A DNA stretch of 64,000 nt from a virus (IMGVR_UViG_3300047369_000650:96001-160000), one strand, 5' to 3'; positions 36,883 to 63,608 are shown, numbered from the stretch's first letter. Notes: a model not told the origin generated them from the sequence alone. A program made the numbers and translations.

Positions 36883-37557
36883 ATGGAACTTAGTGACTCT
36901 ACACTTTCAATTTTAAAGAATTATGCTTCGGTAAATTCTAATCTAGTTATTAATGAAGGTAGTACGCTTCAGACTATTTCTGAAGCAAAGAATATTCTTT
37001 CAAAAGCAGAGATTAAGGAAAGTTTTCCAAAAACATTTGGAGTTTATGATCTAAATGAATTTCTAGGTGTTTTAGGTTTAGTTGACTCGCCTCGTCTTAA
37101 CTTTGAAGAAAATTATGTTATCATTGGTGATTCTACTGGTAGATCAAAAGTAAAGTATTTTTATTCTGATACCGAAATGCTTACAACACCATCTAAAGAA
37201 GTGAAGATGCCGGATACTGATGTAAGATTTACTCTTGATGGAGATACTCTTGGTAAAGTTAAGCGAGCAGCTTCAGCTCTTGGACACAGTGAACTTCATG
37301 TCTCACCTAGCGGATCTGCAGTAAGTTTAACTGTTACATCTTCCGAAAATTCTACAGCAAATAGTTTCTCTATTGATGTGGAAGGTAGTTCATCCAGTGA
37401 TAAATACAACTTTGTCTTTAATATTTCTAATTTAAAGATTGACCAAGGAGATTATGAAGTAGAGATTTCTTCAAAATTAATTTCAAAATTTACCAAATCA
37501 GGAAGTGATCTTATGTATTGGATCGCTCTTGAAAAGACATCAACATACGGAGAATAA
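36883..37557 (+). CDS. gp45: sliding clamp gp45
   Basis: LSILKNYASVNSNL, FGVYDLNEFL, YWIALE. Confidence 0.94.
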   Translation: MELSDSTLSILKNYASVNSNLVINEGSTLQTISEAKNILSKAEIKESFPKTFGVYDLNEFLGVLGLVDSPRLNFEENYVIIGDSTGRSKVKYFYSDTEMLTTPSKEVKMPDTDVRFTLDGDTLGKVKRAASALGHSELHVSPSGSAVSLTVTSSENSTANSFSIDVEGSSSSDKYNFVFNISNLKIDQGDYEVEISSKLISKFTKSGSDLMYWIALEKTSTYGE

Positions 37558-44712: not shown

Positions 44713-47295
44713 TTGAATTCATTCTACACTTCTGTGAACCGTTATGGTAATTCTATTCTTTATCGTGGATATTCCCCTAATGGTTCGCCAATTAATCAAC
44801 GTTATAAATTTAAACCAAAATTCTGGGTAGCATCTAAGGATCCAACAGAGATAAAATCCTTTGATGGTGGCAACATAAGCCCTATAGAATTTGAAAATAT
44901 GCGTGAAGCTAAAGAGTTTCTTGAACAATATTCAGAAATGGATGGCGTAAAGATATATGGCACACGTAATTATATACATCAGTTTATTACAGATAAGTTT
45001 CCTGATGATATTAAATTTAATCCGAGTAGTATAAATGTAGTAAACTTTGATATAGAGGTTGCCTCAGATGATGGGTTTCCAACTCCAGATGCTGCAGCAT
45101 ATCCAATTATATCTATTGCTCTTAAATCCAGTAAATCTTCGATATATCAAGTGTGGGGTTTAGATGACTATGATCCATCTAAAACAGAAATCAATTTAGA
45201 TGGTGGTCAGATACAGTATCATCAGTTTGACTCTGAACCAGCAATGATGGCTTCGTTTCTAACTTACTGGACTAAAAATTATCCTGATATTATTACTGGC
45301 TGGAATACTAGATTCTTTGATGTTCCTTATCTTGTTAATCGTATTAAAATTATTGGTACGGAAGAAGCCGCTAACAAGTTATCTCCATGGAAACTTGTTA
45401 ATGAAAGAAATACTACAATCATGGGTCGACCTCAGGTTAACCATGAGATTGTTGGTATTCAACAAGCAGATTATCTTGAACTATTTAAAAAGTTTGGATA
45501 TTCATATGGAACACAAGAATCATATAAACTAGATCATGTGGCCCATACTGTTCTTGGAGAAAAGAAACTTTCCTATGAAGAACATGGTAATCTCTATACA
45601 TTATACAAACAAGATCATCAGAAGTTTATTGACTATAATATCAGAGATGTTCAGCTAATTGATAAGATGGATGCTAAGATGGGTCTTATTAACTTAGCAA
45701 TGACTATGGCATATAGAGCAGGTACTAATCTTTCCGAGACATTTGGTACAACATCTATCTGGGAATCAATTCTCTATCGTAGATTACTCTCAAAGAATAT
45801 TGTGTCACCAGTAGAGCAGATTCAGAGAGTTGCTTATGAAAATAATTCTAATCCAAATATTATCGAGGGTGGCTATGTAAAAGATCCTCAAGTTGGTGCA
45901 CACGACTGGGTAGTATCATTTGATTTAAATTCTCTGTATCCAAATATTATTGTTCAGTCTAACATATCTCCAGAGACTATTATTCGTAACAAAACATGGA
46001 GAACATTTCAGCAAGGTGTTGATCACTATTTAAACGGAACAGATAAAGCTGATAGTGAATATTCTATCTGCGCAAGTGGAGTGCCTTTCTCGAGAGAAAA
46101 GCAAGGGGTAATTCCAGAACTCATTGTTGATTACTATTCAGAAAGAAGTGTTATCAAGAAAAAGATGTTGGATGCTAAGTCACAATATGAAAAGACAAAA
46201 TCATCATATCTTGAAGCAGAAATCAATCAGCTAGAAAATAACCAGATGTCAATTAAGATTTTACTTAATTCTCTTTATGGTGCTCTTGCAAATAAACATT
46301 TTAAATACTTTGATAATGCCCTAGCCGAGAGTGTAACACTTACTGGTCAGCTTTCTATTAAATGGGCAGAGCGTGCTATTAATCAAGAGATGAATAAAAT
46401 TCTTAAGACTGATGATTTTGATTATGTTATTGCTATTGATACAGATTCAGTTTATATTAATTTCGGTCCTCTTGTAACCAAATTAAAACCAAAAGATCCT
46501 GTAAAGGCTATTGACAAACTATGTCAAGATCATTTTGAAAAGATTATTGCTAAAGCATATGATGGTTTATATCATAGGCTTAATGGCTATACTCCACGCA
46601 TGGAAATGGGTAGAGAAGTTATTGCTGATCGTGGTATATGGACTGCAAAAAAACGCTATATACTTAACGTACACAATAACGAAGGTGTTCAATATGCAGA
46701 ACCTAAACTAAAAATGATGGGTATCGAGGCTATTAAATCATCAACTCCTGAAGTAGTCCGAGATAAGTTTAAAGAAATATTTAAGGTTATTATTACTAGT
46801 ACTGAAGCAGAAACTCGTAGATATATTAATGACTTTAAAGCAAAATTTAAATCTCTACCACCTGAAGCTGTTGCATTTCCACGTGGAGTTTCTGATATTA
46901 GTAAGTTTTCACATAAGAAGAATATCTATTGTAATTCTAATAATTCTAAACAATGGTCATCGGGTAGTCAGACAGCAACAATAAAAACAACGCCTATTCA
47001 TGTTCGTGGTGCTCTTTTGTATAATCATCATGTTAAAGATAAGGCGCTAGATAAGAAGTACATTATGATACAAAACGGAGAAAAGATTAAATTTACATAT
47101 ATGAAGCTTCCGAATCCTATTCGTGAAAATGTAATTTCTTTTCCGGATTACTTACCCGAAGAATTAAATCTGCATAAATATGTAGACTATGAGATGCAAT
47201 TTGAAAAAACTTTTATTGAACCGCTTAATCCTATTCTTGAAGCCGTTGGTTGGTCTGTCAAGGATGTGCAAACACTGGAGGACTTTTTTGGATGA
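44713..47295 (+). CDS. gp43: family B DNA polymerase gp43
   Basis: FDIEV exonuclease, SFDLNSLYP, KILLNSLYG, IDTDS; C-terminal TLEDFFG clamp motif; TTG start after GAGG. Confidence 0.98.
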   Translation: MNSFYTSVNRYGNSILYRGYSPNGSPINQRYKFKPKFWVASKDPTEIKSFDGGNISPIEFENMREAKEFLEQYSEMDGVKIYGTRNYIHQFITDKFPDDIKFNPSSINVVNFDIEVASDDGFPTPDAAAYPIISIALKSSKSSIYQVWGLDDYDPSKTEINLDGGQIQYHQFDSEPAMMASFLTYWTKNYPDIITGWNTRFFDVPYLVNRIKIIGTEEAANKLSPWKLVNERNTTIMGRPQVNHEIVGIQQADYLELFKKFGYSYGTQESYKLDHVAHTVLGEKKLSYEEHGNLYTLYKQDHQKFIDYNIRDVQLIDKMDAKMGLINLAMTMAYRAGTNLSETFGTTSIWESILYRRLLSKNIVSPVEQIQRVAYENNSNPNIIEGGYVKDPQVGAHDWVVSFDLNSLYPNIIVQSNISPETIIRNKTWRTFQQGVDHYLNGTDKADSEYSICASGVPFSREKQGVIPELIVDYYSERSVIKKKMLDAKSQYEKTKSSYLEAEINQLENNQMSIKILLNSLYGALANKHFKYFDNALAESVTLTGQLSIKWAERAINQEMNKILKTDDFDYVIAIDTDSVYINFGPLVTKLKPKDPVKAIDKLCQDHFEKIIAKAYDGLYHRLNGYTPRMEMGREVIADRGIWTAKKRYILNVHNNEGVQYAEPKLKMMGIEAIKSSTPEVVRDKFKEIFKVIITSTEAETRRYINDFKAKFKSLPPEAVAFPRGVSDISKFSHKKNIYCNSNNSKQWSSGSQTATIKTTPIHVRGALLYNHHVKDKALDKKYIMIQNGEKIKFTYMKLPNPIRENVISFPDYLPEELNLHKYVDYEMQFEKTFIEPLNPILEAVGWSVKDVQTLEDFFG

Positions 47296-48002
47296 ATTAT
47301 ATATTTGACGTAGACGGTACTTTAACACCAAGCCGTATGCGGATAGATAAAGAATTTAAGGAATTCTTTTTAGAATTTATAAAGAAAAATAATGTTTATC
47401 TTGCTACAGGATCAGATTATATAAAAACAGTAGAACAACTTGGAACAGAAATCTGTGAGAGTGTTACTAAGTGTTATAACTGTTGTGGTAACAGCGTTTG
47501 GCAAAACGGAGAAGAAATATTTAGATCCGATTGGACGCTGTCGCACGAATTAGATAAATGGTTAAAAAAAGAACTAAAGAAAAGTAAATTTGATATAAGA
47601 ACTGGTAATCATATTGAGCAAAGACCCGGCTTGGTAAATTTTAGCATTGTCGGTAGAAATGCCTCCTTTGAAGAAAGATTTATCTACACTCAATGGGATG
47701 AACAGGTAGAAGAAAGAAAAACAATTGCTAGAGAATTTAATCAACAGTTTGCATATTACAAAGCTCAAGTAGCAGGTGAGACAGGTCTTGATATTATGCC
47801 TATAGGATATGATAAAAGACAAATTGCCGATGATATTGAAGGTCCAATAATATTCTTTGGTGATAAAATGGCTCATGGTGGTAACGATTATCCATTAGCT
47901 GAAGTAATACAGTATAGAGAAAATTCTTGGAATTATGAAGTAAAGTCTTGGAAAGACACCCATAAAATATTAATTAGTTTATCATATAATGGTTTACAAT
48001 AA
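47292..48002 (+). CDS. HAD-IIB phosphomannomutase (PMM-like)
   Basis: FDVDGTLTP.R, ATGSD, IEQRPGLVNFSIVGRNA, FFGDKM..GGNDY. Confidence 0.85.
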   Translation: MNYIFDVDGTLTPSRMRIDKEFKEFFLEFIKKNNVYLATGSDYIKTVEQLGTEICESVTKCYNCCGNSVWQNGEEIFRSDWTLSHELDKWLKKELKKSKFDIRTGNHIEQRPGLVNFSIVGRNASFEERFIYTQWDEQVEERKTIAREFNQQFAYYKAQVAGETGLDIMPIGYDKRQIADDIEGPIIFFGDKMAHGGNDYPLAEVIQYRENSWNYEVKSWKDTHKILISLSYNGLQ

Positions 48003-48021
48003 GTAAAATATAGTGTATAAT
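47993..48021 (+). promoter_or_regulatory. sigma70-type promoter
   Basis: TTTACA-17nt-TATAAT. Confidence 0.75.
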
Positions 48022-48042
48022 AATACTATAGAGGAGAAAAAA

Positions 48043-48402
48043 ATGAAAGCTGGTAAAGTATGGGGAACAACTGAACTGATTGAAGCTAATGGCGCTTTAG
48101 AATTTCATCGTATTGAAATGGAAGAAGGTGGTGTATGCTCTAAGCACTTACATCGCTATAAGTGGAATGGTTTTTATGTAGAATCTGGAAAGATGCTTAT
48201 TCGTACATGGCAACGTGATTACGATTTAGTTGATGTTACTATTCTTGATGAAGGCGATTATCATAAAGTTAAACCTGGTCTTTATCATCAATTTGAGTGT
48301 CTTCAAGAAGGTGTGGCTTACGAGCTATATTGGGCAGAGTTTAATCATAATGATATTGAACGTGAAAGTGTAGGATATCATATGGATGATGTAGATGACT
48401 GA
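48043..48402 (+). CDS. cupin, sugar isomerase-like (mannose-6-P isomerase type II / D-lyxose isomerase-like)
   Basis: KVWG, SKHLH..K.NGFYVESG, VKPGLYHQF. Confidence 0.7.
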   Translation: MKAGKVWGTTELIEANGALEFHRIEMEEGGVCSKHLHRYKWNGFYVESGKMLIRTWQRDYDLVDVTILDEGDYHKVKPGLYHQFECLQEGVAYELYWAEFNHNDIERESVGYHMDDVDD

Positions 48403-48559
48403 TTCTTTTTCTGATGTAACAAGAGTAGAAGTTATTGATAATAATGGTCGATCATATACTAAAAATTGGGTAGATAGTGTAGAAATACAACTTCAAGATG
48501 ACGGAAAAACTCTTAAATTATTTGTACACTATGATGATGAGGAGATATCAGATGACTGA
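48395..48559 (+). CDS. 54-aa hypothetical phage protein (not in ORF track)
   Basis: VTRVEVIDNNGRSY...LQDDGKTLKLF; overlaps flanking stop/start. Confidence 0.7.
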   Translation: MTDSFSDVTRVEVIDNNGRSYTKNWVDSVEIQLQDDGKTLKLFVHYDDEEISDD

Positions 48560-48839
48560 GTATGTAGTATTAACAGCAATTCAACAATTTAGAACACGTT
48601 ATGTGGTTCCAGTAGAAGATATGGAAGACTGTGATCCTGAAACATTTATTAAAGATTCTGTTACTTTTGGCGAAGTAAAAGAGTTTAGCCAATTAGATTT
48701 AAAAGAAAATATAATCGATGTTCAAATATATGATGAGAATAATCTTTTAGATTTATTCGACAAAGATAATGATTATCTTTCTGGATGGACTAAAGAACAA
48801 AAAATAAAATGGATTAGAAATTGGGAAGAAGGTCTATGA
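48552..48839 (+). CDS. hypothetical protein
   Basis: GGAG RBS before ATG 48552; FRTRYVVP...EFSQ..L.E.I. Confidence 0.7.
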   Translation: MTEYVVLTAIQQFRTRYVVPVEDMEDCDPETFIKDSVTFGEVKEFSQLDLKENIIDVQIYDENNLLDLFDKDNDYLSGWTKEQKIKWIRNWEEGL

Positions 48840-49249
48840 GAGTAGGATTAACTGCTAGCACATTTGATTTATTGCATGCAGGTCACATAATGATGTTAAG
48901 AGAAGCTAAGTCACAATGTGATTGGCTTATTGCTGCTTTACAAGTAGATCCTAGCTATGATCGAAAAGAAAAAAATTCTCCTATTCAAACTATTGTTGAG
49001 AGACAAGCACAGCTTGAAGCAGTAAAATATGTTGATGAAGTTATTATATATTGTACAGAGGCAGATCTACTTGATATAATTAATATGTATCCAATTAATG
49101 TTAGAATACTAGGTGAAGAATATAGAACACAAAATTTTACAGGTAAAGATGAATGCCGTAATAGAGGCATTGACTTGTATTTTAATAAGCGTGATCATAG
49201 ATTTAGTTCAAGTGGATTAAGAAATCGTGTTTGTGACAATCATAAATAA
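48836..49249 (+). CDS. cytidylyltransferase (TagD / HIGH-motif nucleotidyltransferase)
   Basis: STFDLLHAGH, ER..QLEAVKYVDEV, RDHRFSSS. Confidence 0.88.
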   Translation: MRVGLTASTFDLLHAGHIMMLREAKSQCDWLIAALQVDPSYDRKEKNSPIQTIVERQAQLEAVKYVDEVIIYCTEADLLDIINMYPINVRILGEEYRTQNFTGKDECRNRGIDLYFNKRDHRFSSSGLRNRVCDNHK

Positions 49250-49252
49250 TAC

Positions 49253-49281
49253 TTTACAAATTGATCAAAATAGGATATAAT
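49253..49281 (+). promoter_or_regulatory. sigma70-type promoter
   Basis: TTTACA-17nt-TATAAT. Confidence 0.7.
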
Positions 49282-49287
49282 ATAAAA

Positions 49288-49581
49288 ATGATTTATGAAG
49301 AAAAAATTATTCAGTGGCACTATGATAGAAATCTTATTGAAGGTTCTACAGATAAAGATCAGTATATGAAACTTATTCAAGAAATGGGTGAACTATCAGA
49401 TAATATCTGTAAGGGTAAAGATATTAGAGATGACTGCGGAGATATTATGGTTGTTCTTATTAATATCATGGAAAGAAATAATATCAGTCTTGAAGAATGT
49501 CTTGAAGTAGCCTATAACGATATTAAGGACCGTAAAGGTAAGATGGTAGATGGTGTCTTCGTAAAAGAAGGTGATAGTTAA
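49288..49581 (+). CDS. MazG-like NTP pyrophosphohydrolase
   Basis: KLIQEMGEL...DDCGDIMVVL...AYNDIKDRKG. Confidence 0.85.
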   Translation: MIYEEKIIQWHYDRNLIEGSTDKDQYMKLIQEMGELSDNICKGKDIRDDCGDIMVVLINIMERNNISLEECLEVAYNDIKDRKGKMVDGVFVKEGDS

Positions 49582-50516
49582 TGCAACCAAAATATCCAAT
49601 TTATATTATCTCTAAGGGTAGAGCCGACTCACGGCTTACCTCTAAAACTCTTGATGAGATTAGAGTACCATATAAAATTGTTATTGAAGAAAGTGAGTTT
49701 GATGATTATAATAAAGGCATTTCAGCCGATAAGATTCTAACTCTACCGCCCGGATTTAGAGAAAATCCAAAGTATGCAATTCCAGATAATAAAGGTAGAA
49801 TCGGCGGTTCTATTCCAGCACGCAACTTTGTCTGGGATCATTCTATTAAAGAAGGTCATGAGCGTCATTGGATTATGGATGATAATATCAAACATTTCTA
49901 TAGACTGCATAAAAACCAAAAGACTAAAGTGACATCTGGTACAGTAATTAGATTGTGTGAAGACTTTACAGATCGCTATAAAAATGTTAAAATGTCTGGT
50001 ATGAACTATCAGTATTTTGCTCCAGCTTCTCAGAAGAAAAGACCATACACACTTAATACTAGAATTTATTCCTGTATTTTATTATCTAATGATATTAAAC
50101 ATAGATGGCGTGGTAAATATAATGAAGATACCGATCTGAGTTTAAATATTCTAAAAGATGATTGGTGTACAATTCTATTTAATGCCTTCTTGTGTGGTAA
50201 GATTACAACTCTTGTTATGGGTGGTGGTAATACAGATAATGTGTATGTGGATGGAGATAATCGTTTACAATTTGCACAAGCACTTGTAGAACAACATCCA
50301 GACTTGGTTAAAGTTGTTCAAAGATATAATAGATGGCATCACCACGTTGATTATAGCCCATTTAAAAAGAATAAACTTATTTATCGTGATGACTATGTAA
50401 TTAAAAGTGGTACTAATGAGTATGGTATGAAATTACATGCATTAACTATGGATCAATATAAAAAAGCAACAACAGAATTTGGAAATGCGGAGAACCCTTA
50501 TTATGAGCAAACCTAA
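49581..50516 (+). CDS. GT-A glycosyltransferase, TAGT/GREB1-like (copy 1)
   Basis: YPIYIISKGR, ARNFVWD, WIMDDNI, WRGKYNEDTDLSL, L.FNAF. Confidence 0.8.
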   Translation: MQPKYPIYIISKGRADSRLTSKTLDEIRVPYKIVIEESEFDDYNKGISADKILTLPPGFRENPKYAIPDNKGRIGGSIPARNFVWDHSIKEGHERHWIMDDNIKHFYRLHKNQKTKVTSGTVIRLCEDFTDRYKNVKMSGMNYQYFAPASQKKRPYTLNTRIYSCILLSNDIKHRWRGKYNEDTDLSLNILKDDWCTILFNAFLCGKITTLVMGGGNTDNVYVDGDNRLQFAQALVEQHPDLVKVVQRYNRWHHHVDYSPFKKNKLIYRDDYVIKSGTNEYGMKLHALTMDQYKKATTEFGNAENPYYEQT

Positions 50517-50784
50517 AGGCGCTAACTTATTTGTATTAGATGGACAAGAAGATGATCTTGACCCTATGGGCTGGGATGACATGCCAGAATTTGAACAAGA
50601 AAATCGTGAAGATTATGCTGCTATTGTGATGCGATTTAGAACAGAAGAAGATTTAAAAGAATTTGCACAAAAGATTGGTCAACCAAATCTTACTAGAAAA
50701 TCACGTGGTACATTCTACCCTGCTGTTGATTTTAATGAAGCTAATCTTCTACGTTGGATGGATGAAGATCAAATACAGAGTTAA
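50503..50784 (+). CDS. hypothetical protein adjacent to TAGT
   Basis: DMPEFEQE...RFRTEEDLKEFAQKIGQ..T.K...YP. Confidence 0.7.
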   Translation: MSKPKGANLFVLDGQEDDLDPMGWDDMPEFEQENREDYAAIVMRFRTEEDLKEFAQKIGQPNLTRKSRGTFYPAVDFNEANLLRWMDEDQIQS

Positions 50785-50786
50785 TT

Positions 50787-51725
50787 ATGGAAGTTTCTGC
50801 AACATTCTTTAAATCTATATATGATAATAAAACTCATAAGAACATGAGTTTTTCTGGCTTTCCTCAGTTTGAGGAATTTCTATATAAACTATCTGAAAGA
50901 AAATTAGAAGATAAAAAAGCTGCTCAGCTCATATCACCAGCAACTTATATTAAAGATACTACAAGAGCAAATAAAAATGTAGTTGACTGGGCTGGATGGG
51001 CAGCTATGGATGTAGATGACCATGAGTTTAAAGGAGATTTAAAAGATGATCTTATTCGTATCTATGGTAAGTACTATTTTGTTTGCTATAGTACTGCTAG
51101 CAGCAGAGAAAGTTTACCAAAGTTTCGTTTGGTCTTCCCACTTACAGAAAGAGTTAGAGGAGATAATATCAGACATTTTTGGTACGCACTCAACACAGAA
51201 CTCCAAGCAATCGGCGATGCGCAAACTAAGGATCTATCACGAATGTATTATATCCCTGGTTCGTACTCTGGCGCTTTCAACTTTATTTTTACTAATACTG
51301 GCGGTAGTTATATAAACCCTCGAGAGTTAATGGCGAGTCATTCATATCAAGAAAAAAAGACCGGTACGTTCTTAGATAGATTACCAACAGAGATGCAAAA
51401 ATCTATCATAGAATATCGTAAGAATAAAATGGAGAATACTGGTGTTAGTTGGTCTAACTATGAAGATTGTCCATTCGTAAATAAAAATCTTATCAGAGAT
51501 TTTAAGAATATAGCATATGTTGATAATACTGGAAGATATGCTATGGTTTATAAGATTATGGTTTCAATAGCAAGTAGTGCAATTAAAAAAGAATATCCTA
51601 TAAACACATTTGAGATTGTAGAACTAATTAAGCAACTAGATGCCGATACAGCTAAGAGATATGAGAATAGACCTCTTAATGTAGAAGCGGATCGTGCTAT
51701 AGAATATGCATACAGAAATATTTAA
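50787..51725 (+). CDS. AEP/prim-pol-like protein with helical C-terminal domain
   Basis: ISPATY, MDVDD, YSTASS, KFRLVFPL, D..TKDLSRMYYIP. Confidence 0.65.
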   Translation: MEVSATFFKSIYDNKTHKNMSFSGFPQFEEFLYKLSERKLEDKKAAQLISPATYIKDTTRANKNVVDWAGWAAMDVDDHEFKGDLKDDLIRIYGKYYFVCYSTASSRESLPKFRLVFPLTERVRGDNIRHFWYALNTELQAIGDAQTKDLSRMYYIPGSYSGAFNFIFTNTGGSYINPRELMASHSYQEKKTGTFLDRLPTEMQKSIIEYRKNKMENTGVSWSNYEDCPFVNKNLIRDFKNIAYVDNTGRYAMVYKIMVSIASSAIKKEYPINTFEIVELIKQLDADTAKRYENRPLNVEADRAIEYAYRNI

Positions 51726-51732
51726 AAAAAAT

Positions 51733-51795
51733 CATTTTAGGGGTTTACAAGTGATATGTTTTATGTTATGTTGTAAGAGTAAATAGAATCGGAGA
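51733..51795 (+). promoter_or_regulatory. early promoter cassette
   Basis: CATTTTAGGGG-TTTACA(51744)-17nt-TATGTT(51767)-GTAAGAGTAAATAGAATCGGAGA. Confidence 0.85.
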
Positions 51796-51801
51796 CTTCT
51801 T

Positions 51802-52083
51802 ATGGCTTACTATACTTACACAAAAGATCCTATCGGTTGTTTTGTTGAGAAAGATACCGGCAATTACTTTGAGTATTCACTTAACGATGAACCTATTTCA
51901 GGTTTTTCCGAAGACTTTCCCCATAAAGTTTGGGTAGGTGGCGGCGGTGTATGCGGCATGACGGGTTATAGATTTGCTCATGTTAAAAAGACTGTTGCTG
52001 TGATCGTTGTAGACGAAGACGAGTTTGGTCTTCCCGTTACTGAAAAGTGGTATGTTAAAAATCATAACCAATATGCACTTTAG
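51802..52083 (+). CDS. hypothetical early protein
   Basis: Own early promoter and GGAG RBS. Confidence 0.75.
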   Translation: MAYYTYTKDPIGCFVEKDTGNYFEYSLNDEPISGFSEDFPHKVWVGGGGVCGMTGYRFAHVKKTVAVIVVDEDEFGLPVTEKWYVKNHNQYAL

Positions 52084-52115
52084 GGATTTACAAACTCCTA
52101 AAAATATGGTATGTT
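52081..52115 (+). promoter_or_regulatory. early promoter cassette
   Basis: TAGGGA-TTTACA(52087)-17nt-TATGTT(52110). Confidence 0.75.
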
Positions 52116-52147
52116 GATTATATAAAGAGAATCCGAAAGGAACTAAA

Positions 52148-52657
52148 ATGTTTAACGTTGCTACAAATCTTACAAAAGTTGGAACTTACCTCGGATATTT
52201 TACAATTCAAGAGCATACAACAAACGTAAATAATAATAAGCCTTCTCGTACTTATGAAAAGCTTGTATTTACAAAAGCCGATGGTATGGAGACTCGTGAT
52301 TTTAAAGCTATGGGTGATATTGTATACGGTATGTATGTTAACGGCAATCTTGTTAAGATTGGCAAAGCGGGTTCAACAAACGGTTGGGCTGGACGTATCG
52401 GTACCTACGGTGTTGATCCAAAAGGCGAAGCAACTAATCGTAAAATTATTACACATCTAAAAGAAGATTTTACATATGAAACACGTGTAGAAGTATATGG
52501 GATTTCAGTTCCTCGTATTCACTCAGAATATTTCTGCCCAGTAACGCGTGAAACAGTTTCTATTGAACTTCCACAGAACCATCAAGTAGAAACTCATTTA
52601 ACTATTGAAGCAGAAGCAGAAGGCGAAGATCTGATATTCTGCACACAGAAAGTTTAA
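52148..52657 (+). CDS. GIY-YIG nuclease resembling T4 endonuclease II (DenA)
   Basis: IVYGMYVNGNLVKIGK..RIGTY..TNRKII..LKE..VEVYG parallels DenA VIYAIAINDELVYIGK..RINYY..LKEG.KVEFYA. Confidence 0.6.
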   Translation: MFNVATNLTKVGTYLGYFTIQEHTTNVNNNKPSRTYEKLVFTKADGMETRDFKAMGDIVYGMYVNGNLVKIGKAGSTNGWAGRIGTYGVDPKGEATNRKIITHLKEDFTYETRVEVYGISVPRIHSEYFCPVTRETVSIELPQNHQVETHLTIEAEAEGEDLIFCTQKV

Positions 52658-52659
52658 TT

Positions 52660-53025
52660 ATGGCTAAAGTAGTATATGGTACAGATATATATGGAGATGA
52701 TGTAAAGCTTTATGATTATAAAGATACACCTTCATGCGAAATCTGTAATAATAAATTCAGAGGTGGCACCATTGATAAAAAAGGTAGTAGAAAAACCGAT
52801 TTGCTTACCGATGTTGAAAAGGCTATTAGAAATAAACAAAGACACAGCTATGGTCATTTGCGTAAAATTACAGTCGATAAAATCTTAATGGGTCACATGA
52901 AACAACCAAGACCATCTGGATTAAAACCTAATCAAGTCTTTGCGTGTGAATGTTGTTATAATGTACATATAAGTACGATAAGAATGTTAAAAGAAAAAGA
53001 ATTAAATACATTACCGGGTCTTTAA
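52660..53025 (+). CDS. Zn-binding hypothetical protein (HNH-like possible)
   Basis: CEIC ... ACECCYNVH. Confidence 0.55.
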   Translation: MAKVVYGTDIYGDDVKLYDYKDTPSCEICNNKFRGGTIDKKGSRKTDLLTDVEKAIRNKQRHSYGHLRKITVDKILMGHMKQPRPSGLKPNQVFACECCYNVHISTIRMLKEKELNTLPGL

Positions 53026-53052
53026 TTCCTAAAACAAATAAATGGTTAGGTG

Positions 53053-53889
53053 ATGAGTAAAGAAAAATTTTATAATTTTTTTAATGATTTCTATAAAGAA
53101 GAAATTATTAACGTTGTAAAGTATCCAATATATATTCCTTCTAAGGGAAGGCCTACCTGTGTCACAGCTAAAGTTTTAGAAGAAAGTGGGCTCAACTATT
53201 TAATTGTAGTTGAGCCTCAAGACTATGAACAATACTCTATTTATCATAAACATGATAAGATGATCTGCTTAGAAAAAGACAATCAAGGAATACCATATGT
53301 AAGAAACTTTTGTAAAGAACATTCTGATGCAAAATATCATTGGCAGTTTGATGATAATATAAGATCGTTTAAAGTAAGAAAAGATGATAAGAACATAAAA
53401 GAGGATCCATCTAAACTAATATCCATAATAGAAACTTTTACGAATCATTTTGAAAATATCGGCATATCTGGATTTTCTCATGATATTTTTGCTTGGACTA
53501 AAAAGTATCCTATAGATATAAACAAACAATGCTATAGTGGTGTTCTTGTTAATAATAATATTAATATAAAATGGAGAGATAATGTCGTAGAGGATACAGA
53601 TTATTCTTTACAAGTATTATCAAAAGAATATTGTACATTGCTATTTAATACGCTGTTAATAGTTAAAGAAGCCACAAAAAAAGGTAACGGTGGTAATGAT
53701 AATTCCGACAGTTGGCGACTAAATAGATCGTTAGGATTACAAAATTATTGGCCAGAAGCAAACTTTAAAATAACTCGAGAGTACGGTAGGGTTAAGATAA
53801 AACCTTCTCAAATATGGAAAAAGTTTACTCATATGCCTAAAGGTTCTAATATAGATTTTAATGATAATGATTTATCCGAATTTTTTTAG
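53053..53889 (+). CDS. GT-A glycosyltransferase, TAGT/GREB1-like (copy 2) with C-terminal clamp-type motif
   Basis: YPIYIPSKGR, VVEPQDYEQY, VRNFCKE, WQFDDNI, WR...EDTDYSL; ends DLSEFF. Confidence 0.8.
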   Translation: MSKEKFYNFFNDFYKEEIINVVKYPIYIPSKGRPTCVTAKVLEESGLNYLIVVEPQDYEQYSIYHKHDKMICLEKDNQGIPYVRNFCKEHSDAKYHWQFDDNIRSFKVRKDDKNIKEDPSKLISIIETFTNHFENIGISGFSHDIFAWTKKYPIDINKQCYSGVLVNNNINIKWRDNVVEDTDYSLQVLSKEYCTLLFNTLLIVKEATKKGNGGNDNSDSWRLNRSLGLQNYWPEANFKITREYGRVKIKPSQIWKKFTHMPKGSNIDFNDNDLSEFF

Positions 53890-53918
53890 TTTACAATACC
53901 TCTATAATAGTGTATAAT
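53890..53918 (+). promoter_or_regulatory. sigma70-type promoter
   Basis: TTTACA-17nt-TATAAT. Confidence 0.8.
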
Positions 53919-53941
53919 AGAGATATAAAGGAGAATAAAAT

Positions 53942-54898
53942 ATGTCACATATAACAGTAACTGGCGGCGCCGGTTTTATTGCTTACCATCTTATACAAAA
54001 GCTAGTTGACGAAGGTCATACTGTAACAGCATTTGATAACTTTAATGATTACTATGATGTTGATCTAAAAGAAGATAGAGCAAACAATTTAAAGAATCTT
54101 GGTGTTGAAGTGCACCGTCTTGATCTAAAATCAAAAGAACCTTTACGTTTTTTTCTTGCTGCTCATAAACCTGATGCCGTTATTCATTTAGCTGCATATG
54201 CAGGTGTACGACACTCGTTAGAAGAACCACAAACATATATTGATAATAATGTTACTGGTACTCAAAATCTAATCGAAGCTTGTGTGGATGCTAATGTTGA
54301 AAACGTAATATATGCATCAACATCATGTACTATGGCTGGTAATGAATTACCCTGGAAAGAAGATGAGAAATGTGGTTATCAATTAAATCCATATGGCTAT
54401 ACTAAATTTACTAATGAAGCACAGTTTATGTCTAGTTCAATTATCAGGACAGTTGGGCTCCGTTTCTTTACTGTTTACGGTCCTTGGGGTCGCCCTGATA
54501 TGGCACTCTTTGATTTTACTAAAAATATTGTTGCTGGTAAGGAAATTGAACTATTTAACTATGGCGATATGATTCGTGACTTTACATATGTTGATGATAT
54601 TGTAAACGGTATTGTTATTGTTTTAAATCAATCTTTATCTCAAACTGAAGAATTTAATGAAATATATAACATTGGTTGTGGAGAACAAGTAAAGCTAGTT
54701 GATTTCGTTGATCACATTGAAAATAATCTTGACCGTAAAGCTAAACGTAAACTTGTGCCAATACACCCAGCTGATACTCAAGCTACTTGGTCTGATACAA
54801 CTAAACTACAAAAACTTGGTTATAAACCTACAGTTTCAATTGCCGAAGGTGTGGAAAAATTTATTTCTTGGTATAAACTATATTATGGAGTAAACTAA
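53942..54898 (+). CDS. NAD-dependent epimerase, UDP-glucuronate 4-epimerase-like
   Basis: TGGAGFIA, HLAAYAGVRHSL, YGYTK, RFFTVYGPWGRPDMA, RDFTYVDDIV. Confidence 0.9.
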   Translation: MSHITVTGGAGFIAYHLIQKLVDEGHTVTAFDNFNDYYDVDLKEDRANNLKNLGVEVHRLDLKSKEPLRFFLAAHKPDAVIHLAAYAGVRHSLEEPQTYIDNNVTGTQNLIEACVDANVENVIYASTSCTMAGNELPWKEDEKCGYQLNPYGYTKFTNEAQFMSSSIIRTVGLRFFTVYGPWGRPDMALFDFTKNIVAGKEIELFNYGDMIRDFTYVDDIVNGIVIVLNQSLSQTEEFNEIYNIGCGEQVKLVDFVDHIENNLDRKAKRKLVPIHPADTQATWSDTTKLQKLGYKPTVSIAEGVEKFISWYKLYYGVN

Positions 54899-55023
54899 TG
54901 CTTTACAAAACCGTTGCATTATATTATAATATATCAGTAGAAGAATTAATTAATAGGCTTGTAAATAATGGCGAGCCTCTTATATGCAAATATTACAAGG
55001 AAGTTTATCCCGATGGGTTCTAA
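54898..55023 (+). CDS. 41-aa hypothetical peptide (not in ORF track)
   Basis: TAATG-coupled; contains a TTTACA-17-TATAAT promoter (54902-54930), so may be non-coding. Confidence 0.4.
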   Translation: MLYKTVALYYNISVEELINRLVNNGEPLICKYYKEVYPDGF

Positions 55024-55852
55024 ATTAAAGATTGCAATTGTTGGACATGGTTTTGTCGGTAAAGCTATTGATCACGGTTTTAATGATTATAACTGTACCA
55101 AAATCATCATTGATCCTAAATATGGAAATAGTGTCGATAGTATTAAATCACTAGATGTAGATGTTTCTTTTGTGGCTGTTCCAACCCCTATGGGTAAAGA
55201 TGGTGAGATTGATTCATCTATTGTGGTAGAAACTGTAAAAAAACTTAAACAACGGCGTAGTGGCATTATAGTAATTAAATCCACAGTAACACCTGATATT
55301 ATTAAATCTCTTACTAGAGGAGGTGGCACAAGTTCAAGAGTTGTCTATAACCCAGAATTCCTAACAGAAGTTAATGCTAATTCTGATTTTATAAATCCTG
55401 ATATGCATGTGTTTGGTGGACATAAAGAAACTACACTACGATTAGAAGAAATCTATAAAGAATATAGTTTATGCAAACCATGTCCAGCCTTTCATATGTC
55501 TGCTACAGAAGCCAGCTTTGTTAAGTATGGTCTTAACTGTTTTCTTGCTACCAAAGTTTTATGGTTTAATCAATTCTATGATGTGGTAGAAAAGTTTGGT
55601 GGAAATTTCGGTCATATAGTAAATGCTATTGGTACAGATCCACGTATTGGTACATCACATACTAGAGCGCCAGGCTTTGATGGTAAACGCGGCTATGGTG
55701 GTGCTTGTTTCCCAAAAGATACATCCGCATTTAATACTTTTTCAAACCAAGAGTTTAGCGTTTTAAACGAGGTTATTCGTGTAAATAATGAATATAGAAA
55801 AGAGTATGAAAAAGATTCTCGTGAGCTAGAGCAAAACGTAAGCTATGCTTGA
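55013..55852 (+). CDS. UDP-glucose/GDP-mannose 6-dehydrogenase family (C-terminal domain absent)
   Basis: IVGHGFVG, VPTP, IKSTV.P, YNPEFL, K...N.FLA.K, GYGGACFPKD (catalytic Cys). Confidence 0.9.
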   Translation: MGSKLKIAIVGHGFVGKAIDHGFNDYNCTKIIIDPKYGNSVDSIKSLDVDVSFVAVPTPMGKDGEIDSSIVVETVKKLKQRRSGIIVIKSTVTPDIIKSLTRGGGTSSRVVYNPEFLTEVNANSDFINPDMHVFGGHKETTLRLEEIYKEYSLCKPCPAFHMSATEASFVKYGLNCFLATKVLWFNQFYDVVEKFGGNFGHIVNAIGTDPRIGTSHTRAPGFDGKRGYGGACFPKDTSAFNTFSNQEFSVLNEVIRVNNEYRKEYEKDSRELEQNVSYA

Positions 55853-56039: not shown

Positions 56040-57086
56040 ATGTCAATTATGGACAAACTCAAGAAGAATTCAAAACTATCCCACACATCGATTCTTTCTG
56101 AGTCTAAATTTTTTACTGAAAAAGATATGGTTCCAACAGATGTCCCTATGATTAATGTTGCACTATCTGGTTCGGTAGATGGTGGGTTAGCCCCAGGTCT
56201 TACAGTTCTTGCGGGACCTTCTAAACACTTTAAAACTTCCTTTGCCTTACTTATGGCAGCTGCCTATTTAAAGGCATATCCAGATGCAGTAATGCTATTC
56301 TATGATTCAGAGTTTGGATCACCTCAGAGTTATTTTGAACAATTCGGTGTTGATACATCTCGTGTTCTTCATACACCAATTACTAATGTTGAAGAATTAA
56401 AATTTGACTTAATTGGTCAACTAGAAGAATTAGATAGAAACGATAAAGTTGTAGTTGTTATTGATTCTATTGGTAACTTAGCATCAAAGAAAGAATTAGA
56501 AGACGCTAAGAATGAAAAGTCTGTAGCAGATATGTCTCGTGCAAAAGCACTTAAAGGCTTATTCCGTATGAGTACACCATATCTTGCTATGAAGAATATT
56601 CCACTTATTGCAGTAAATCATACATATCAAGAGATTGGTTTATTTCCTAAAGCTATTGTATCTGGCGGAACTGGTATATACTATAGTGCAGATAATATTT
56701 GGATTATTGGTCGCCAACAAGATAAGAAAGGTACCGAGATTCAAGGTTATCACTTTGTGATTAATGTGGAGAAATCACGATATGTTAAAGAAAAGTCAAA
56801 GATTCCTATTACTGTGTCTTGGGAAGGTGGTGTCAAGTCTTATTCTGGCTTGCTCGATTGTGCTCTTGCTGGTGGTTATGCTGTTAAGCCTTCCAATGGC
56901 TGGTATGCTACTGTTGATCAATCTTCTGGAGAAGTTGGACCTAAAGTTCGGTACGATGGAACTCTTGATAAGTCCTTCTGGGATCCGATCTTTGCTGAAA
57001 CGGATTTTAAAGATTTCCTAAAGAAGCAATATAGCATCGGTCATCAGTCTCTTGTTGAAATGGATGAAATTGTGGTTGAAGAGTAA
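56040..57086 (+). CDS. uvsX: RecA-like recombinase UvsX
   Basis: AGPSKHFKT, YDSEFG, IDSIGNLAS, VNHTY, SGGTG..YSAD. Confidence 0.96.
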   Translation: MSIMDKLKKNSKLSHTSILSESKFFTEKDMVPTDVPMINVALSGSVDGGLAPGLTVLAGPSKHFKTSFALLMAAAYLKAYPDAVMLFYDSEFGSPQSYFEQFGVDTSRVLHTPITNVEELKFDLIGQLEELDRNDKVVVVIDSIGNLASKKELEDAKNEKSVADMSRAKALKGLFRMSTPYLAMKNIPLIAVNHTYQEIGLFPKAIVSGGTGIYYSADNIWIIGRQQDKKGTEIQGYHFVINVEKSRYVKEKSKIPITVSWEGGVKSYSGLLDCALAGGYAVKPSNGWYATVDQSSGEVGPKVRYDGTLDKSFWDPIFAETDFKDFLKKQYSIGHQSLVEMDEIVVEE

Positions 57087-59245: not shown

Positions 59246-59478
59246 CTGATTATAATAATGATGAATTTAAAGCCTGCTACAATAAAGTTATAAATGCGGT
59301 AAATAGTATGGTAGAAAATAATAATGAACCTTTAATGATTGCAGCCGTTCTTACAACAACAGGATTAAGTTTATATCGGTCTTTATTACCCGAAGAGGAT
59401 TATGATAAAATGCTAGAAGTTATGGTTGAATTTAAAGATGATATTAATTCATATCAACATAGAGGATATTTAAATTGA
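59242..59478 (+). CDS. hypothetical protein
   Basis: 78-aa coupled ORF. Confidence 0.65.
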   Translation: MTDYNNDEFKACYNKVINAVNSMVENNNEPLMIAAVLTTTGLSLYRSLLPEEDYDKMLEVMVEFKDDINSYQHRGYLN

Positions 59479-60164
59479 AAGTTAGATTATTGGCATATAG
59501 CCAACCGATGAAACATGTGCACTCTGGAGAGCCAGGGATTATGGGTTTAGATAATATTCAAGATCTGATTGCATATTGCGCTAGAGTGTCAAATCCCGGC
59601 AACCAAGCCAATACTAAAACAACACCAAAGCTTTTATCATATTTAATTAAACATAAGCATTGGTCTCCATTTGAAATGGCTTCAGCCACAATGGAGATTG
59701 AGACTACAAGAGACATTGCTCGTCAGTTTCTTCGGCATAGATCATTTTCTTTCCAAGAATTTTCACAGAGATATGCAGATCCAAATGATATGGGAGAAGC
59801 ATTTGTTATTCGTGAAGCCAGACTTCAAGACGAAAAGAATCGGCAAAATAGTATAAAGAATGATGATACTGCTCTTGAAGCTTGGTGGCATGCACAACAG
59901 CAGTTTATGATTGATCATACTAAAAGAATTTACAAAGAAGCAAGAGAAAGGGGTATTGCAAAAGAACAAGCAAGAGCCATTTTACCAGAAGGTAATACGG
60001 TTTCTCGTTTATATGCGAATGGTACTATTAGATCATGGATTCATTATATTGAGCTACGTTCAGCAAACGGAACTCAACAAGAACATATGGATCTAGCAAT
60101 AGAAACTGCAAAAGCAATTGCTCAGATTTATCCTTCAGTAGAAAATTTTATTCAAGAGGAGTAG
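59475..60164 (+). CDS. thyX: flavin-dependent thymidylate synthase
   Basis: HWSPFE, RDIARQFLRHRSFSFQEFSQRY, R.ILP, SWIHYIELRS. Confidence 0.95.
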   Translation: MKVRLLAYSQPMKHVHSGEPGIMGLDNIQDLIAYCARVSNPGNQANTKTTPKLLSYLIKHKHWSPFEMASATMEIETTRDIARQFLRHRSFSFQEFSQRYADPNDMGEAFVIREARLQDEKNRQNSIKNDDTALEAWWHAQQQFMIDHTKRIYKEARERGIAKEQARAILPEGNTVSRLYANGTIRSWIHYIELRSANGTQQEHMDLAIETAKAIAQIYPSVENFIQEE

Positions 60165-61243: not shown

Positions 61244-61801
61244 ATGAAATATTATAGATTAGAACCATCAGTTAAAAAATCTGTTATTGAATGGCATTCA
61301 TTTAAGAGAAAAGATGCCGACGGTAATACAATTTTTCTCCGTAAAGAATTAGGCTGGAGATACGGAGCATGGTTAATTAGTGTACCAGAGACAGATGAAG
61401 AAATTAAAGAATATCTTTCTGATAAAGGAGATTATGAATCATTTCAGGAATATCTTGTAGACTATTATGGCGAAGATGATATGATTACAGAAGAAACCAA
61501 ATTAGAAGATTATCTGCTTCCTAAAATAGATGAAGACTTTGTTGACATTAGTGAAGATTATGAAGATGCAGAAATGTTAGAAACCTGGGATGGATGTTGG
61601 GAAGACTGGTCACTTATTGGAACCGAACTTGATGAAATATCAGAAGAACAGCAAGAACAATGGATAGAAGATGCTACAGCAGCGTATGATGAAGATTATG
61701 AAGATGGAGTAGAAGGATTAGGTTGGGAATTTATAGACTGCTTCTATGAAATGCATTGTCATCCAGAAATTACACCATGTGATAAAAATGGCAATACTTA
61801 A
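61244..61801 (+). CDS. acidic hypothetical protein
   Basis: AGGAG RBS, 185 aa. Confidence 0.75.
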   Translation: MKYYRLEPSVKKSVIEWHSFKRKDADGNTIFLRKELGWRYGAWLISVPETDEEIKEYLSDKGDYESFQEYLVDYYGEDDMITEETKLEDYLLPKIDEDFVDISEDYEDAEMLETWDGCWEDWSLIGTELDEISEEQQEQWIEDATAAYDEDYEDGVEGLGWEFIDCFYEMHCHPEITPCDKNGNT

Positions 61802-62294
61802 TGTTTTAAAGACTATAGGTCGTAATGAAGAAAGTGACGAATGTTATACTCCAATTAATCAAGTTAAACCTTTATTACAATATCTTGATAATAGTAAAAC
61901 ATATTATGAGCCAACATCTGGAATATCATCTAATATAGTAAAAGCTTTTACCGAAAATGGATATGATATGAAGTCCAGTAACGGTAAAGACTTTTTTGAG
62001 TGTACTGCAGATGATGTATATGATGGTATAGTAACTAACCCACCGTATAGTAAAAAAGATAAATTTATAAAACACTGCTATAATCTTAAAAAACCATTTG
62101 CTTTACTACTTCCCGTATCATCATTTCAAGGTGTAAGAAGGGGTAAACAGTTCATAGAGCACGGTATGTCCGCAATAGTTTATAATCACAGAGTTGATTT
62201 TACTGGTGGTGATAATCCGCATTTTGGCGTTGCATGGTTTGTGCATGGTTTTTTACCACCCAATCAAATATTTTGGGTCGATAATAAATTTTAA
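61788..62294 (+). CDS. putative amino (N6-A/N4-C) DNA methyltransferase
   Basis: SDECYTP, YEPTSG, DFF, IVTNPPYS. Confidence 0.7.
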   Translation: MAILNVLKTIGRNEESDECYTPINQVKPLLQYLDNSKTYYEPTSGISSNIVKAFTENGYDMKSSNGKDFFECTADDVYDGIVTNPPYSKKDKFIKHCYNLKKPFALLLPVSSFQGVRRGKQFIEHGMSAIVYNHRVDFTGGDNPHFGVAWFVHGFLPPNQIFWVDNKF

Positions 62295-63323: not shown

Positions 63324-63608
63324 ATGAAAAATAAAATTGACTATCGTTTTGACGAAGAAAAATATATTACGGAATTTAAAGAGTATGTAGATGCTACCTA
63401 TAATCAGCACTATTCTCAAAATAAATTCCAATCAACTGAAGTAATTATGGATCGTGGTCATGGTACTGGTTTCTGTATGGGGAATGTAGATAAATATTCC
63501 AATAGATATGGTAAGAAAGGTACTGCAGCAGATGCTCGTAAGGACCTTATGAAAGTATTACACTATGCTCTATTACAACTATATGTGCATGACAATGAAC
63601 TTGGATAA
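63324..63608 (+). CDS. DUF3310-like conserved phage protein
   Basis: TYNQHY, GFCMGNVDKY..RYGKKG, DLMKVLHYA. Confidence 0.75.
   Translation: MKNKIDYRFDEEKYITEFKEYVDATYNQHYSQNKFQSTEVIMDRGHGTGFCMGNVDKYSNRYGKKGTAADARKDLMKVLHYALLQLYVHDNELG

Follow-up and report, generated by a model that had tools for sequence, protein, structure and literature searches.

Organization of the gp43–uvsX block

Between the genes for the DNA polymerase gp43 (44713–47295) and UvsX (56040–57086) of a T4-like marine myovirus lies a block of sugar-nucleotide and glycosyltransferase (GT) genes, all on the + strand, which is the subject of this analysis. The block was studied in a window of 64,000 nucleotides, the whole stretch of DNA analysed, comprising bases 96001–160000 of the 177.5 kb IMG/VR viral contig IMGVR_UViG_3300047369_000650 (completeness rating 86%); positions are those of the window unless another locus is named. 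With the DNA polymerase of Phage C48C1 (Kyanoviridae), gp43 shares 54% identity, and with the cyanophage polymerases about 45%. Seawater and viral metagenomes from at least 12 studies hold the window or near-identical DNA, 14 runs containing at least 74% of its words, and megablast of the block against phage records gave no match.

An earlier note on this DNA had listed ten gene types between gp43 and uvsX and had read them as a system that glycosylates phage DNA in step with replication. All ten types are indeed found at 47292–55852 on the + strand, as judged from Pfam, PHROG, PDB or fold matches (Table 1). The proposal that the block uses the promoters of the replication genes and not the late promoter is also borne out: the exact early-type promoter TTTACA-N17-TATAAT occurs eight times in the window, where 0.15 copies are expected, five of these copies precede the polymerase, cupin, MazG, epimerase and UDP-glucose dehydrogenase (UGD)-like genes, and no late promoter TATAAATA is present in or after the block, the last copy in the window lying at 41256. 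In addition, the gp43 stop codon overlaps the start codon of the PMM gene (ATGA, 47292–47295), so that translation of the first sugar gene is coupled to that of the DNA polymerase. Contigs from RNA libraries, which include a relative of about 94% identity over the genes from PMM to the AEP-like protein and over epimerase–UGD, and short identical pieces on MazG, TAGT1, o101, TAGT2 and the epimerase, were not used; such libraries can contain DNA and contigs cannot show transcription, and the gap in their coverage over 52150–53830 was likewise left out of consideration.

Table 1. Features of the gp43–uvsX block and related features elsewhere in the window (aa, amino acids; ORF, open reading frame)
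Feature	Position	Strand	Match or remark
gp45 sliding clamp	36883..37557	+	phrog_223 1.4e-70; presumed docking site for tails
gp43 C-terminal tail, L-E-D-F-F-G	47275..47292	+	reference clamp-docking tail
PMM-like HAD-IIB enzyme	47292..48002	+	PF03332 2e-26; PDB PMM2-like 3e-30
Early-type promoter TTTACA-N17-TATAAT	47993..48021	+	before cupin
Small metal-site cupin, 119–129 aa, putative sugar(-phosphate) isomerase	48043..48402	+	Cupin_2 26 bits, just below cut-off
54-aa ORF	48395..48559	+	phrog_10600 4e-6; kept in near relatives
113-aa ORF	48498..48839	+	found in type A island (L035) too
CTP_transf_like nucleotidyltransferase	48821..49249	+	PF01467 2e-11; TIGR02199 4e-19; PDB 3elb 1.6e-19
Early-type promoter	49253..49281	+	before MazG–TAGT1–o101
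MazG-like NTP pyrophosphatase, 106 aa	49261..49581	+	phrog_1992 8e-39; phrog_715 2e-35
TAGT1, PF20691 GT-A, catalytic domain only	49581..50516	+	6e-43, 147.6 bits, profile 1–204/205
o101, 101-aa ORF, free-standing N-terminal domain of long TAGTs	50503..50784	+	predicted TAGT1 partner
AEP-like protein	50787..51725	+	phrog_9765 'DNA primase' 7e-52
93-aa ORF	51802..52083	+	phrog_23785 4e-21
GIY-YIG nuclease, Hpy188I / T4 EndoII (DenA) fold, 169 aa	52148..52657	+	
121-aa Cys-rich ORF	52660..53025	+	no family match; in swappable cassette with TAGT2
TAGT2, second PF20691 GT-A	53050..53889	+	2e-28, 100.1 bits, profile 1–205/205
TAGT2 C-terminal tail, L-S-E-F-F	53872..53886	+	resembles gp43 tail
Early-type promoter	53890..53918	+	before epimerase; right border of GT cassette falls inside
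Extended-SDR 4-epimerase, UDP-GlcA-4-epimerase-like	53942..54898	+	PF01370 9e-53
Early-type promoter	54902..54930	+	before UGD-like gene
Two-domain UGD-like dehydrogenase	54968..55852	+	PF03721 + PF00984; PF03720 missing
Small NPPY N6-adenine DNA methylase-like gene	61746..62294	+	tblastn 67% identity to L030:3996-4502; phrog_799 4e-30; NPPY

Two TAGT-type glycosyltransferases and a split-off N-terminal domain

TAGT1 and TAGT2, which are 36% identical to each other, are the only two PF20691 genes of the genome (gathering cut-off of the family, 27.5 bits). Residues D100-D101-N102 and E182-D183 are invariant in 20 TAGTs from this and sibling loci and are presumably catalytic. TAGT1 shares 45–48% identity with the long TAGTs of the Aeromonas phages Aeh1 and 65, among others, and PDB sequence searches with TAGT1 and with the AEP-like protein returned nothing usable. 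The characterised phage member of PF20691, the T2/T6 beta-glucosyl-HMC-alpha-GT, acts on DNA (PMC13216743, PMC13390438), and a solitary TAGT is found in 288 of 753 GT-bearing phage genomes (PMC13216743).

The small protein o101 is, by several comparisons, the split-off N-terminal domain of the long TAGTs. It aligns to residues 29–96 of the 399-residue Aeh1 TAGT, Aeh1p093 (hhalign 96.6%), and to the N-terminus of the TAGT of Paraglaciecola phage GD1 (95.4%); it is fused N-terminally to a TAGT in P0195, P0200, P0256 and P0257, and once precedes another DXD glycosyltransferase. A profile search with o101 gathered 2612 proteins, and among the sibling loci described below the gene is present in every island of the TAGT type and in no other. 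A model of the TAGT1–o101 complex supports binding of the two proteins, with an ipSAE of 0.84 against 0.01 for the best control, a mark that 58 of 80 solved complexes and two of 110 mismatched pairs attain, although the halves of split genes tend to pass it. The model runs share at least 69% of contacts, the pLDDT of the partner is at least 70, and the modelled interface with TAGT1 takes in the MPEF and RW residues that are invariant in o101.

The second GT belongs to an exchangeable unit. In strains whose flanks are 96–98% identical to the window, positions 52657–53912, which hold the 121-residue ORF and TAGT2, are exactly swapped for a gene encoding a 393-residue GT-B enzyme.

Polymerase-like, putatively clamp-docking tails on the glycosyltransferases

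In T4, the C-terminal tail of gp43 docks the polymerase on the gp45 clamp, and the C-terminus of gp55 also binds the clamp. The corresponding ends here read TLEDFFG in gp43, DLSEFF in TAGT2 and HLENFMI in the GT-B enzyme that replaces it; in sibling phages, alpha-GTs end in SLDEFFG (L035) or GLEEFF and single TAGTs in IDDYW[EGK]. Such ends are rare: across the whole contig, only four of the 474 ORFs of at least 50 residues terminate in the pattern L-[DESN]-[DESN]-F-[FMLIW] followed by at most one residue (0.03 expected), namely gp43, the late sigma factor gp55 (phrog_234), TAGT2 and a 119-residue ORF. In the cultured phage GD1 the polymerase ends in SIDDFM and the TAGT in IEDFMC; the tail of the TAGT therefore co-varies with that of the polymerase. 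Binding of the T4 alpha-GT to gp45 is stated in a passage of PMC13216743 that cites Sommer 2004.

These tails speak for enzymes that act on DNA or, failing that, at the replication fork. The replication coupling claimed in the earlier note is thus supported at the level of sequence, and its reading of the block as a DNA glycosylation system gains from the polymerase-type tail of TAGT2 and from the siblings, which keep a gp42-like hydroxymethylase, a T4-type alpha-GT and DNA methylases in the same slot. As a clamp adaptor, o101 is a doubtful candidate: its C-terminus, RWMDEDQIQS, differs from the polymerase tail, and the start of sibling o101 proteins, MSTLLDFL, resembles that tail only loosely. 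The 119-residue ORF (63565–63924, phrog_19233) ends in VTLEDFF, as gp43 does, and is a candidate for a further clamp client, perhaps an analogue of gp33.

Putative sugar-donor genes

The PMM-like enzyme, of the eukaryotic phosphomannomutase type, covers positions 2–215 of the 221-position PF03332 profile and carries the DxDxT nucleophile motif as DVDGT. The cupin ORF opens at a GTG at 48013, the ATG at 48043 being the likely start, and its product falls in viral cupin clusters of which some members match the Lyx_isomer or MannoseP_isomer models; because its own Cupin_2 score is sub-threshold and only some of the cluster members match isomerase models, we infer, rather than assign, an isomerase role for what appears to be a sugar enzyme. 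The possibility that the cupin is a base hydroxylase was rejected, as it also accompanies the gp42-like plus alpha-GT type of sibling island, where no extra hydroxylase is needed. The best matches of the nucleotidyltransferase are RfaE domain II, TagD and ethanolamine-phosphate cytidylyltransferase. It is followed by the MazG-like gene, whose stop codon overlaps the start of TAGT1; a second MazG gene sits elsewhere in the genome.

The closest PDB matches of the extended-SDR enzyme are 5u4q (1e-80), 6zl6 (7e-43) and then 6kv9/MoeE5, and we take 6zl6 and MoeE5 to be 4-epimerases of UDP-glucuronic acid (UDP-GlcA). It carries the motifs GGAGFIA, ASTSC and YGYTK and is missing the Asp-Glu pair (TDE) of 4,6-dehydratases. 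The UGD-like protein keeps the GGACFPKD catalytic motif and the Lys/Asn helix, so that the catalytic Cys, Lys, Asn and Asp are all present, and it aligns to residues 84–303 of the 446-residue 4a7p chain. It ends where the UDP-sugar-binding domain (PF03720) of all solved UGDs starts, and this C-terminal domain is absent. The two-domain form is that of a large viral family and not a broken gene: each of at least 120 closest clusters, on contigs of up to 196 kb, is 270–294 residues long with the same two domains and no PF03720.

UGD and UDP-GlcA 4-epimerase are the classical pair for making UDP-GlcA and UDP-galacturonic acid (UDP-GalA), and it is plausible that the epimerase and UGD-like protein would yield a hexuronate donor. 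It is also conceivable that the UGD acts on a sugar already attached to DNA. From the cupin, PMM and nucleotidyltransferase we infer a second donor, a manno-hexose or heptose, or a CDP-alcohol. In several siblings the genes stand in the order cupin–PMM–nucleotidyltransferase–UGD with overlapping stops and starts, which reads as a pathway of isomerase, mutase, activation and oxidation. The uronic-acid supply proposed in the earlier note is therefore retained as far as the presence of the UGD and of a UDP-GlcA-4-epimerase-like SDR is concerned, and is weakened by the missing UDP-binding domain; beside it, the GT-linked cupin and nucleotidyltransferase appear to form a second, non-uronic route.

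A hypervariable island in sibling phages

A search with the AEP-like protein gathered 68 related loci, which include 29 complete intervals from polymerase to uvsX in 15 architectures, and the gp43–uvsX gap is a hypervariable DNA-modification island. The contents of the slot in siblings include C5, N4/N6, NPPY and Dam methylases and EndoVII. L035 (type A) and L045 carry the cupin, the nucleotidyltransferase, a ThyA-like gene, a dCMP deaminase, an alpha-GT, the epimerase, the UGD and a C5 DNA methylase; the sibling alpha-GT is of the T4 type (PF11440, 1e-53), and in the ThyA-like, gp42-like gene an Asp takes the place of E. coli N177, a residue that marks dCMP specificity (PMC13326640). Other siblings carry o101, an N6-adenine methylase-like gene (NPPY, NPPF or DPPY), one TAGT, the cupin, sometimes PMM, the nucleotidyltransferase and the UGD, to which some add KdsA and KdsB or EndoVII. 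C48C1 and about ten other loci hold just a Dam methylase or small ORFs together with epimerase–UGD. The 'DNA methyltransferase' of C48C1 was examined as a hidden TAGT and rejected, as it has no similarity to one and is Dam-like.

When the sugar genes were set against TRANSFERASES, the cupin, nucleotidyltransferase and UGD were found in all seven GT-bearing architectures, whereas among the eight GT-free architectures the cupin occurs in none, the nucleotidyltransferase in one (beside a ThyA-like gene) and the UGD in three, always with the epimerase; the 15 architectures are not independent events, and at least four divergent lineages (identity about 48% between TAGTs and about 60% between polymerases) and two unrelated GT folds are represented among them. 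This distribution bears on the idea that the sugar-nucleotide genes, above all epimerase and UGD, are auxiliary genes that feed other glycans of the phage, on the virion or the cell surface, and have nothing to do with the TAGTs. The occurrence of epimerase and UGD without an island GT in C48C1 and about ten other loci fits this idea, as does the presence of another GT and a cytidyltransferase elsewhere in the C48C1 genome. However, the cupin and nucleotidyltransferase keep company with an island GT in every case but the one beside the ThyA-like gene, the UGD is in every GT-bearing island across the divergent lineages and both GT folds, and donor genes and GTs lie in common operons behind common early promoters. 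We consider an auxiliary supply, which could coexist with the other readings, rather unlikely.

Some siblings suggest chemistries of their own. The MazG-like gene, dCMP-type ThyA homologue, dCMP deaminase and clamp-tailed alpha-GT of L035 (L035:4615-7186) and L045, together with their sugar genes, suggest 5-hydroxymethylcytosine (5hmC) decorated with something besides plain glucose. KdsA (PF00793, 8e-49) and KdsB (PF02348, 8e-21) directly follow the TAGT in L020 (L020:6047-7472), and are also found in L019, L026 and L029, which makes these phages candidates for 3-deoxy-D-manno-oct-2-ulosonic acid (Kdo) on DNA, a modification reported once, for a GT from a metavirome. In L036 (L036:11734-17700), a nucleotidyltransferase and a ThyA-like gene are followed by four proteins of 300–340 residues of no recognised kind, one weakly resembling pyridoxal-phosphate enzymes, with no GT, and this island may represent non-sugar pyrimidine hypermodification. 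A gene of the IMPDH/GMP-reductase family (2e-71) lies in or near islands (upstream of the polymerase in L036; L020:8343-9389), once beside a gene for a UGD-like protein of 246 residues, and short UGD-like genes are also found in Campylobacter phages, which replace guanine in their DNA. The small NPPY methylase-like gene (168–182 residues), which directly precedes the TAGT in siblings, lies 6 kb downstream of the island here.

Proposed mechanism

Our results are best explained, and we consider it probable, by replication-coupled, clamp-tethered glycosylation of the phage DNA with sugars that the phage itself makes and that are probably acidic. The reading of the earlier note is thus supported in part: its core, replication-coupled DNA glycosylation with the phage's own sugar-nucleotides, stands, the AEP-like protein drops out of the system, a second, non-uronic donor route is added, and a hydroxymethyl-pyrimidine acceptor is not supported. 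In the proposed scheme, early host-type promoters would transcribe the block with the replication genes, as the observed promoter pattern and ATGA coupling suggest. The UGD-like protein and the SDR epimerase would supply a hexuronic-acid nucleotide sugar of the UDP-GlcA/GalA type, and the cupin as isomerase, PMM as mutase and the TagD/RfaE-II-type nucleotidyltransferase would supply the second sugar, most likely a manno-hexose or heptose, or else the CDP-alcohol. TAGT1 with o101, and TAGT2 tethered to gp45 by its tail, would then move these sugars onto newly made DNA, either as two steps in the building of a disaccharide or as two separate marks. The small MazG (pool cleaning) and the EndoII-like GIY-YIG nuclease (attack on unmodified DNA) are candidate helpers. 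The second GT is an exchangeable cassette, TAGT2 or GT-B, as expected of anti-restriction armour under selection.

Several observations count against this scheme. Epimerase and UGD are found in islands that have no GT, for example in the complete genome of C48C1; the UGD-like protein lacks the UDP-binding domain, and its substrate is therefore uncertain; TAGT1 itself has no clamp tail; and the eukaryotic TAGT-domain relative GREB1 is a protein O-GlcNAc transferase (PMC7968844). To these are added the results on the acceptor. None of the families PF00303 (thymidylate synthase), PF12851 (TET/JBP), PF13640 and PF13759 (two common groups of 2OG-Fe(II) oxygenases) and PF00145 (C5 methylase) was detected in the 177.5 kb contig, and neither PF00303, PF12851 nor PF00145 was found in contigs of relatives that extend both ends (beyond the 3' end, contigs that run on for about 10 kb as well as a record of 43.7 kb; ahead of the 5' end, 10 kb; further records measure 59 and 82 kb). 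The ThyX of the genome is ordinary and common to GT-free relatives. Of the cultured phages with the closest TAGT1 homologues, Aeh1 and GD1 encode canonical ThyA only (PPCH, PFNIA), and Aeh1 and 65 are without genes 42 and 56, such genomes being thought unmodified (PMC2993671).

The acceptor

The negative result for the ThyA family is meaningful, because the same PF00303 search recovers the divergent ThyA-like genes of the siblings. Searches for TET/JBP (PF12851) were negative everywhere, a weak result as no positive control responded. When the ThyA-like, alpha-GT and C5-methylase genes of siblings were used as tblastn queries, the genome gave no match, nor did the extensions from relatives match the alpha-GT or ThyA-like gene, and Pfam searches of 20 further non-structural ORFs yielded no oxygenase or methylase. 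ThyX (59475–60164) was considered as a disguised hydroxymethylase and rejected, its RHRSFSFQEFSQRY motif and the rest of the protein being the same in GT-bearing and GT-free relatives. Taken with the extensions and the cultured carriers, these searches indicate that the TAGT1 clade as a whole lives without known acceptor pathways. A hydroxymethyl-pyrimidine acceptor, the kind that the earlier note cites for TAGT-family GTs, is therefore not supported, since the genome-wide search that the note called for yielded no hydroxymethylase, TET or C5-methylase; by these comparisons, the acceptor appears not to come from a recognisable ThyA-type hydroxymethylase, nor from a C5-methylase plus TET. Among cultured phages, Vibrio phage Kuja (L073, 8587-11275; Ackermannviridae) has two tandem long TAGTs, a divergent ThyA homologue 7 kb away and a UGD, and is a candidate for glycosylated 5-hydroxymethyluracil.

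A classical route, in which the GTs glycosylate 5-hydroxymethyl or 5-hydroxy pyrimidines made by an enzyme whose gene lies in the roughly 14% of the genome outside the contig, or that escapes recognition through divergence or lack of homology, is in our judgement unlikely. The incompleteness of the contig and its many ORFs without a family match leave room for such an enzyme; every chemically defined phage DNA glycosylation begins at such a base (PMC13326640), the small MazG beside TAGT1 recalls gp56, and the sibling type A islands use a gp42-like enzyme. Yet the contigs of relatives continue past both ends without a hydroxymethylase, and all sibling islands of the TAGT type are without one, whereas siblings of the alpha-GT type keep it in the island itself. 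Moreover, the control search recovers the divergent ThyA-like copy of this very lineage, and cultured carriers of the same TAGT clade have no gene 42.

If the DNA were canonical, the GTs might instead modify, at the fork, a protein or some other acceptor than DNA (the replisome, clamp clients or DNA-bound proteins of host or phage) in the manner of GREB1. This would be consistent with the failure to find a pathway to an acceptor base, with the protein-directed activity of GREB1 itself, with the judgement that Aeh1-type phages are unmodified, and with a homologue in Vibrio phage 1.076.O that lies between portal and head-morphogenesis genes. However, a clamp tail would bring its enzyme to DNA, the other occupants of the slot are DNA-acting enzymes (methylases, gp42-like enzyme, alpha-GT and nucleases), and a bona fide DNA alpha-GT of a sibling has the same tail together with the same donor genes. 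We therefore regard a non-DNA acceptor as improbable.

Returning to glycosylation of DNA, we put forward, as a tentative and decidedly less secure proposal than the scheme itself, that the widespread clade of clamp-tethered TAGTs, long or split with o101, may glycosylate DNA at an acceptor that does not arise by C5 oxygenation of the ThyA or TET type. This could be a position on a canonical base or the backbone, or else a base produced by some as yet undiscovered class of enzyme, and the sugars would be acidic (hexuronate, and Kdo in siblings) and would come from a pathway of the phage to which the UGD lacking the UDP-binding domain belongs.

DNA sugar coats are among the chief means by which phages withstand restriction enzymes and CRISPR, and they hinder sequencing and engineering. 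The phage described here is of a type common in seawater metagenomes, and it combines DNA-type GTs and its own supply of acidic sugar with no known route to the starting base, a gap shared by Aeh1, 65 and GD1. Either a new acceptor chemistry or a non-DNA job of the TAGT family at the replication fork is implied. The polymerase-like tail is a simple marker that could sort thousands of 'orphan' phage GTs into those directed at DNA and others.

The AEP-like protein and the EndoII-like nuclease

The earlier note had counted the AEP-like protein as part of the system. It has an MDVDD motif and matches phrog_9765, with no Pfam or PDB sequence match. Its gene is present in all 68 related loci, including the bare arrangement pol–AEP–uvsX (L053, L062 and L063), and no Toprim-type (gp61-type) primase was detected in the 177.5 kb contig. 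Because its gene persists in loci devoid of sugar genes, and the search for a Toprim primase was negative, we place the protein outside the glycosylation system, as a core gene and a candidate primase. An AEP-like 'primase' between gp43 and uvsX is the lineage core across L001–L069, and in these phages gp61 may have given way to an AEP primase.

The 169-residue protein was modelled by AlphaFold with a pLDDT of 93.5, and Foldseek matched it to R.Hpy188I (3oqg, 7e-5) and T4 EndoII/DenA (2wsh, 1.6e-3), with probability 1.0 for both. Its invariant residues are Y60, K70-I71-G72, R83 and E148. The label 'DenA-like' given to it earlier is thus correct at the level of the fold.

Comparison with known systems

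The nearest familiar system is the glucosylated 5hmC of the T-even phages (gene 42, gene 56, alpha-GT and the T2/T6 TAGT). The GT family, PF20691, is the same; a GT is linked to gp45, as the T4 alpha-GT is, here TAGT2 on the evidence of its tail sequence; an EndoII-like nuclease and a MazG-type pyrophosphatase lie nearby; and sibling phages hold the full set of gp42-like enzyme and alpha-GT in the same slot. Furthermore, the TAGT2/GT-B swap mirrors the exchange of T6 TAGT and T4 beta-GT at one syntenic position (PMC13390438). In contrast to the T-even phages, this genome has no gene 42 homologue and neither an alpha-GT nor a beta-GT beside the TAGT, its donors would be made by the phage whereas the T-even enzymes use host UDP-glucose, and its TAGT is divided between a catalytic gene and a small one for the N-terminal domain.

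Clusters of methyltransferase, 5mYOX (TET) and GT genes from metaviromes put hexose, N-acetylhexosamine, hexuronic acid (HexA), Kdo and heptose on 5hmC; with the reconstituted phage GTs, SDR epimerases are obligatory partners and heptose needs a cytidylyltransferase, and in about 65% of some 25,000 GT contigs neither TET nor ThyS neighbours the GT (Pyle et al., bioRxiv 10.1101/2023.12.21.572611). The present block is similar in its GT-A enzymes, putatively sequential GTs, paired SDR epimerase, presumed uronic, Kdo or heptose chemistry and the position of the GTs by polymerase and clamp genes. It differs in that no C5-methylase, TET or ThyS was found in the genome, in having its own UGD, PMM and putative isomerase, and in the clamp tail of the GT, which was not described for those clusters.

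The T4-like phages RB69 and DLP3, which have arabinosyl-5-hydroxycytosine, likewise make their own nucleoside-diphosphate (NDP) sugar, NDP-arabinose, beside the DNA GTs, with an isomerase, a HAD enzyme and a nucleotidyltransferase, and they use two successive transferases (PMC13326640). There, however, a ThyA-homologous 5hodCMP synthase is present, which was not found here, and the enzyme families (SIS isomerase, kinase) and the sugar are different. Compared with bacterial ugd and UDP-glucuronate 4-epimerase, the genes are adjacent in the same way and the catalytic residues of UGD are kept, but the protein is without PF03720, as in the viral subfamily of 270–294 residues. The likeness to GREB1, which O-GlcNAcylates protein (PMC7968844), rests on the TAGT/GREB1-like label of the earlier note, and a protein acceptor is hinted at here solely by the missing DNA acceptor pathway.

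DNA glycosylation with uronic acid is thus not new in kind, since HexA, Kdo and heptose on phage DNA have already been published (bioRxiv 10.1101/2023.12.21.572611). What is new is that GTs of three kinds bear clamp tails like the polymerase's own, that the TAGT is split, that two-domain UGDs form a family, that strains exchange a GT cassette, and that an acceptor route is absent genome-wide, with controls.

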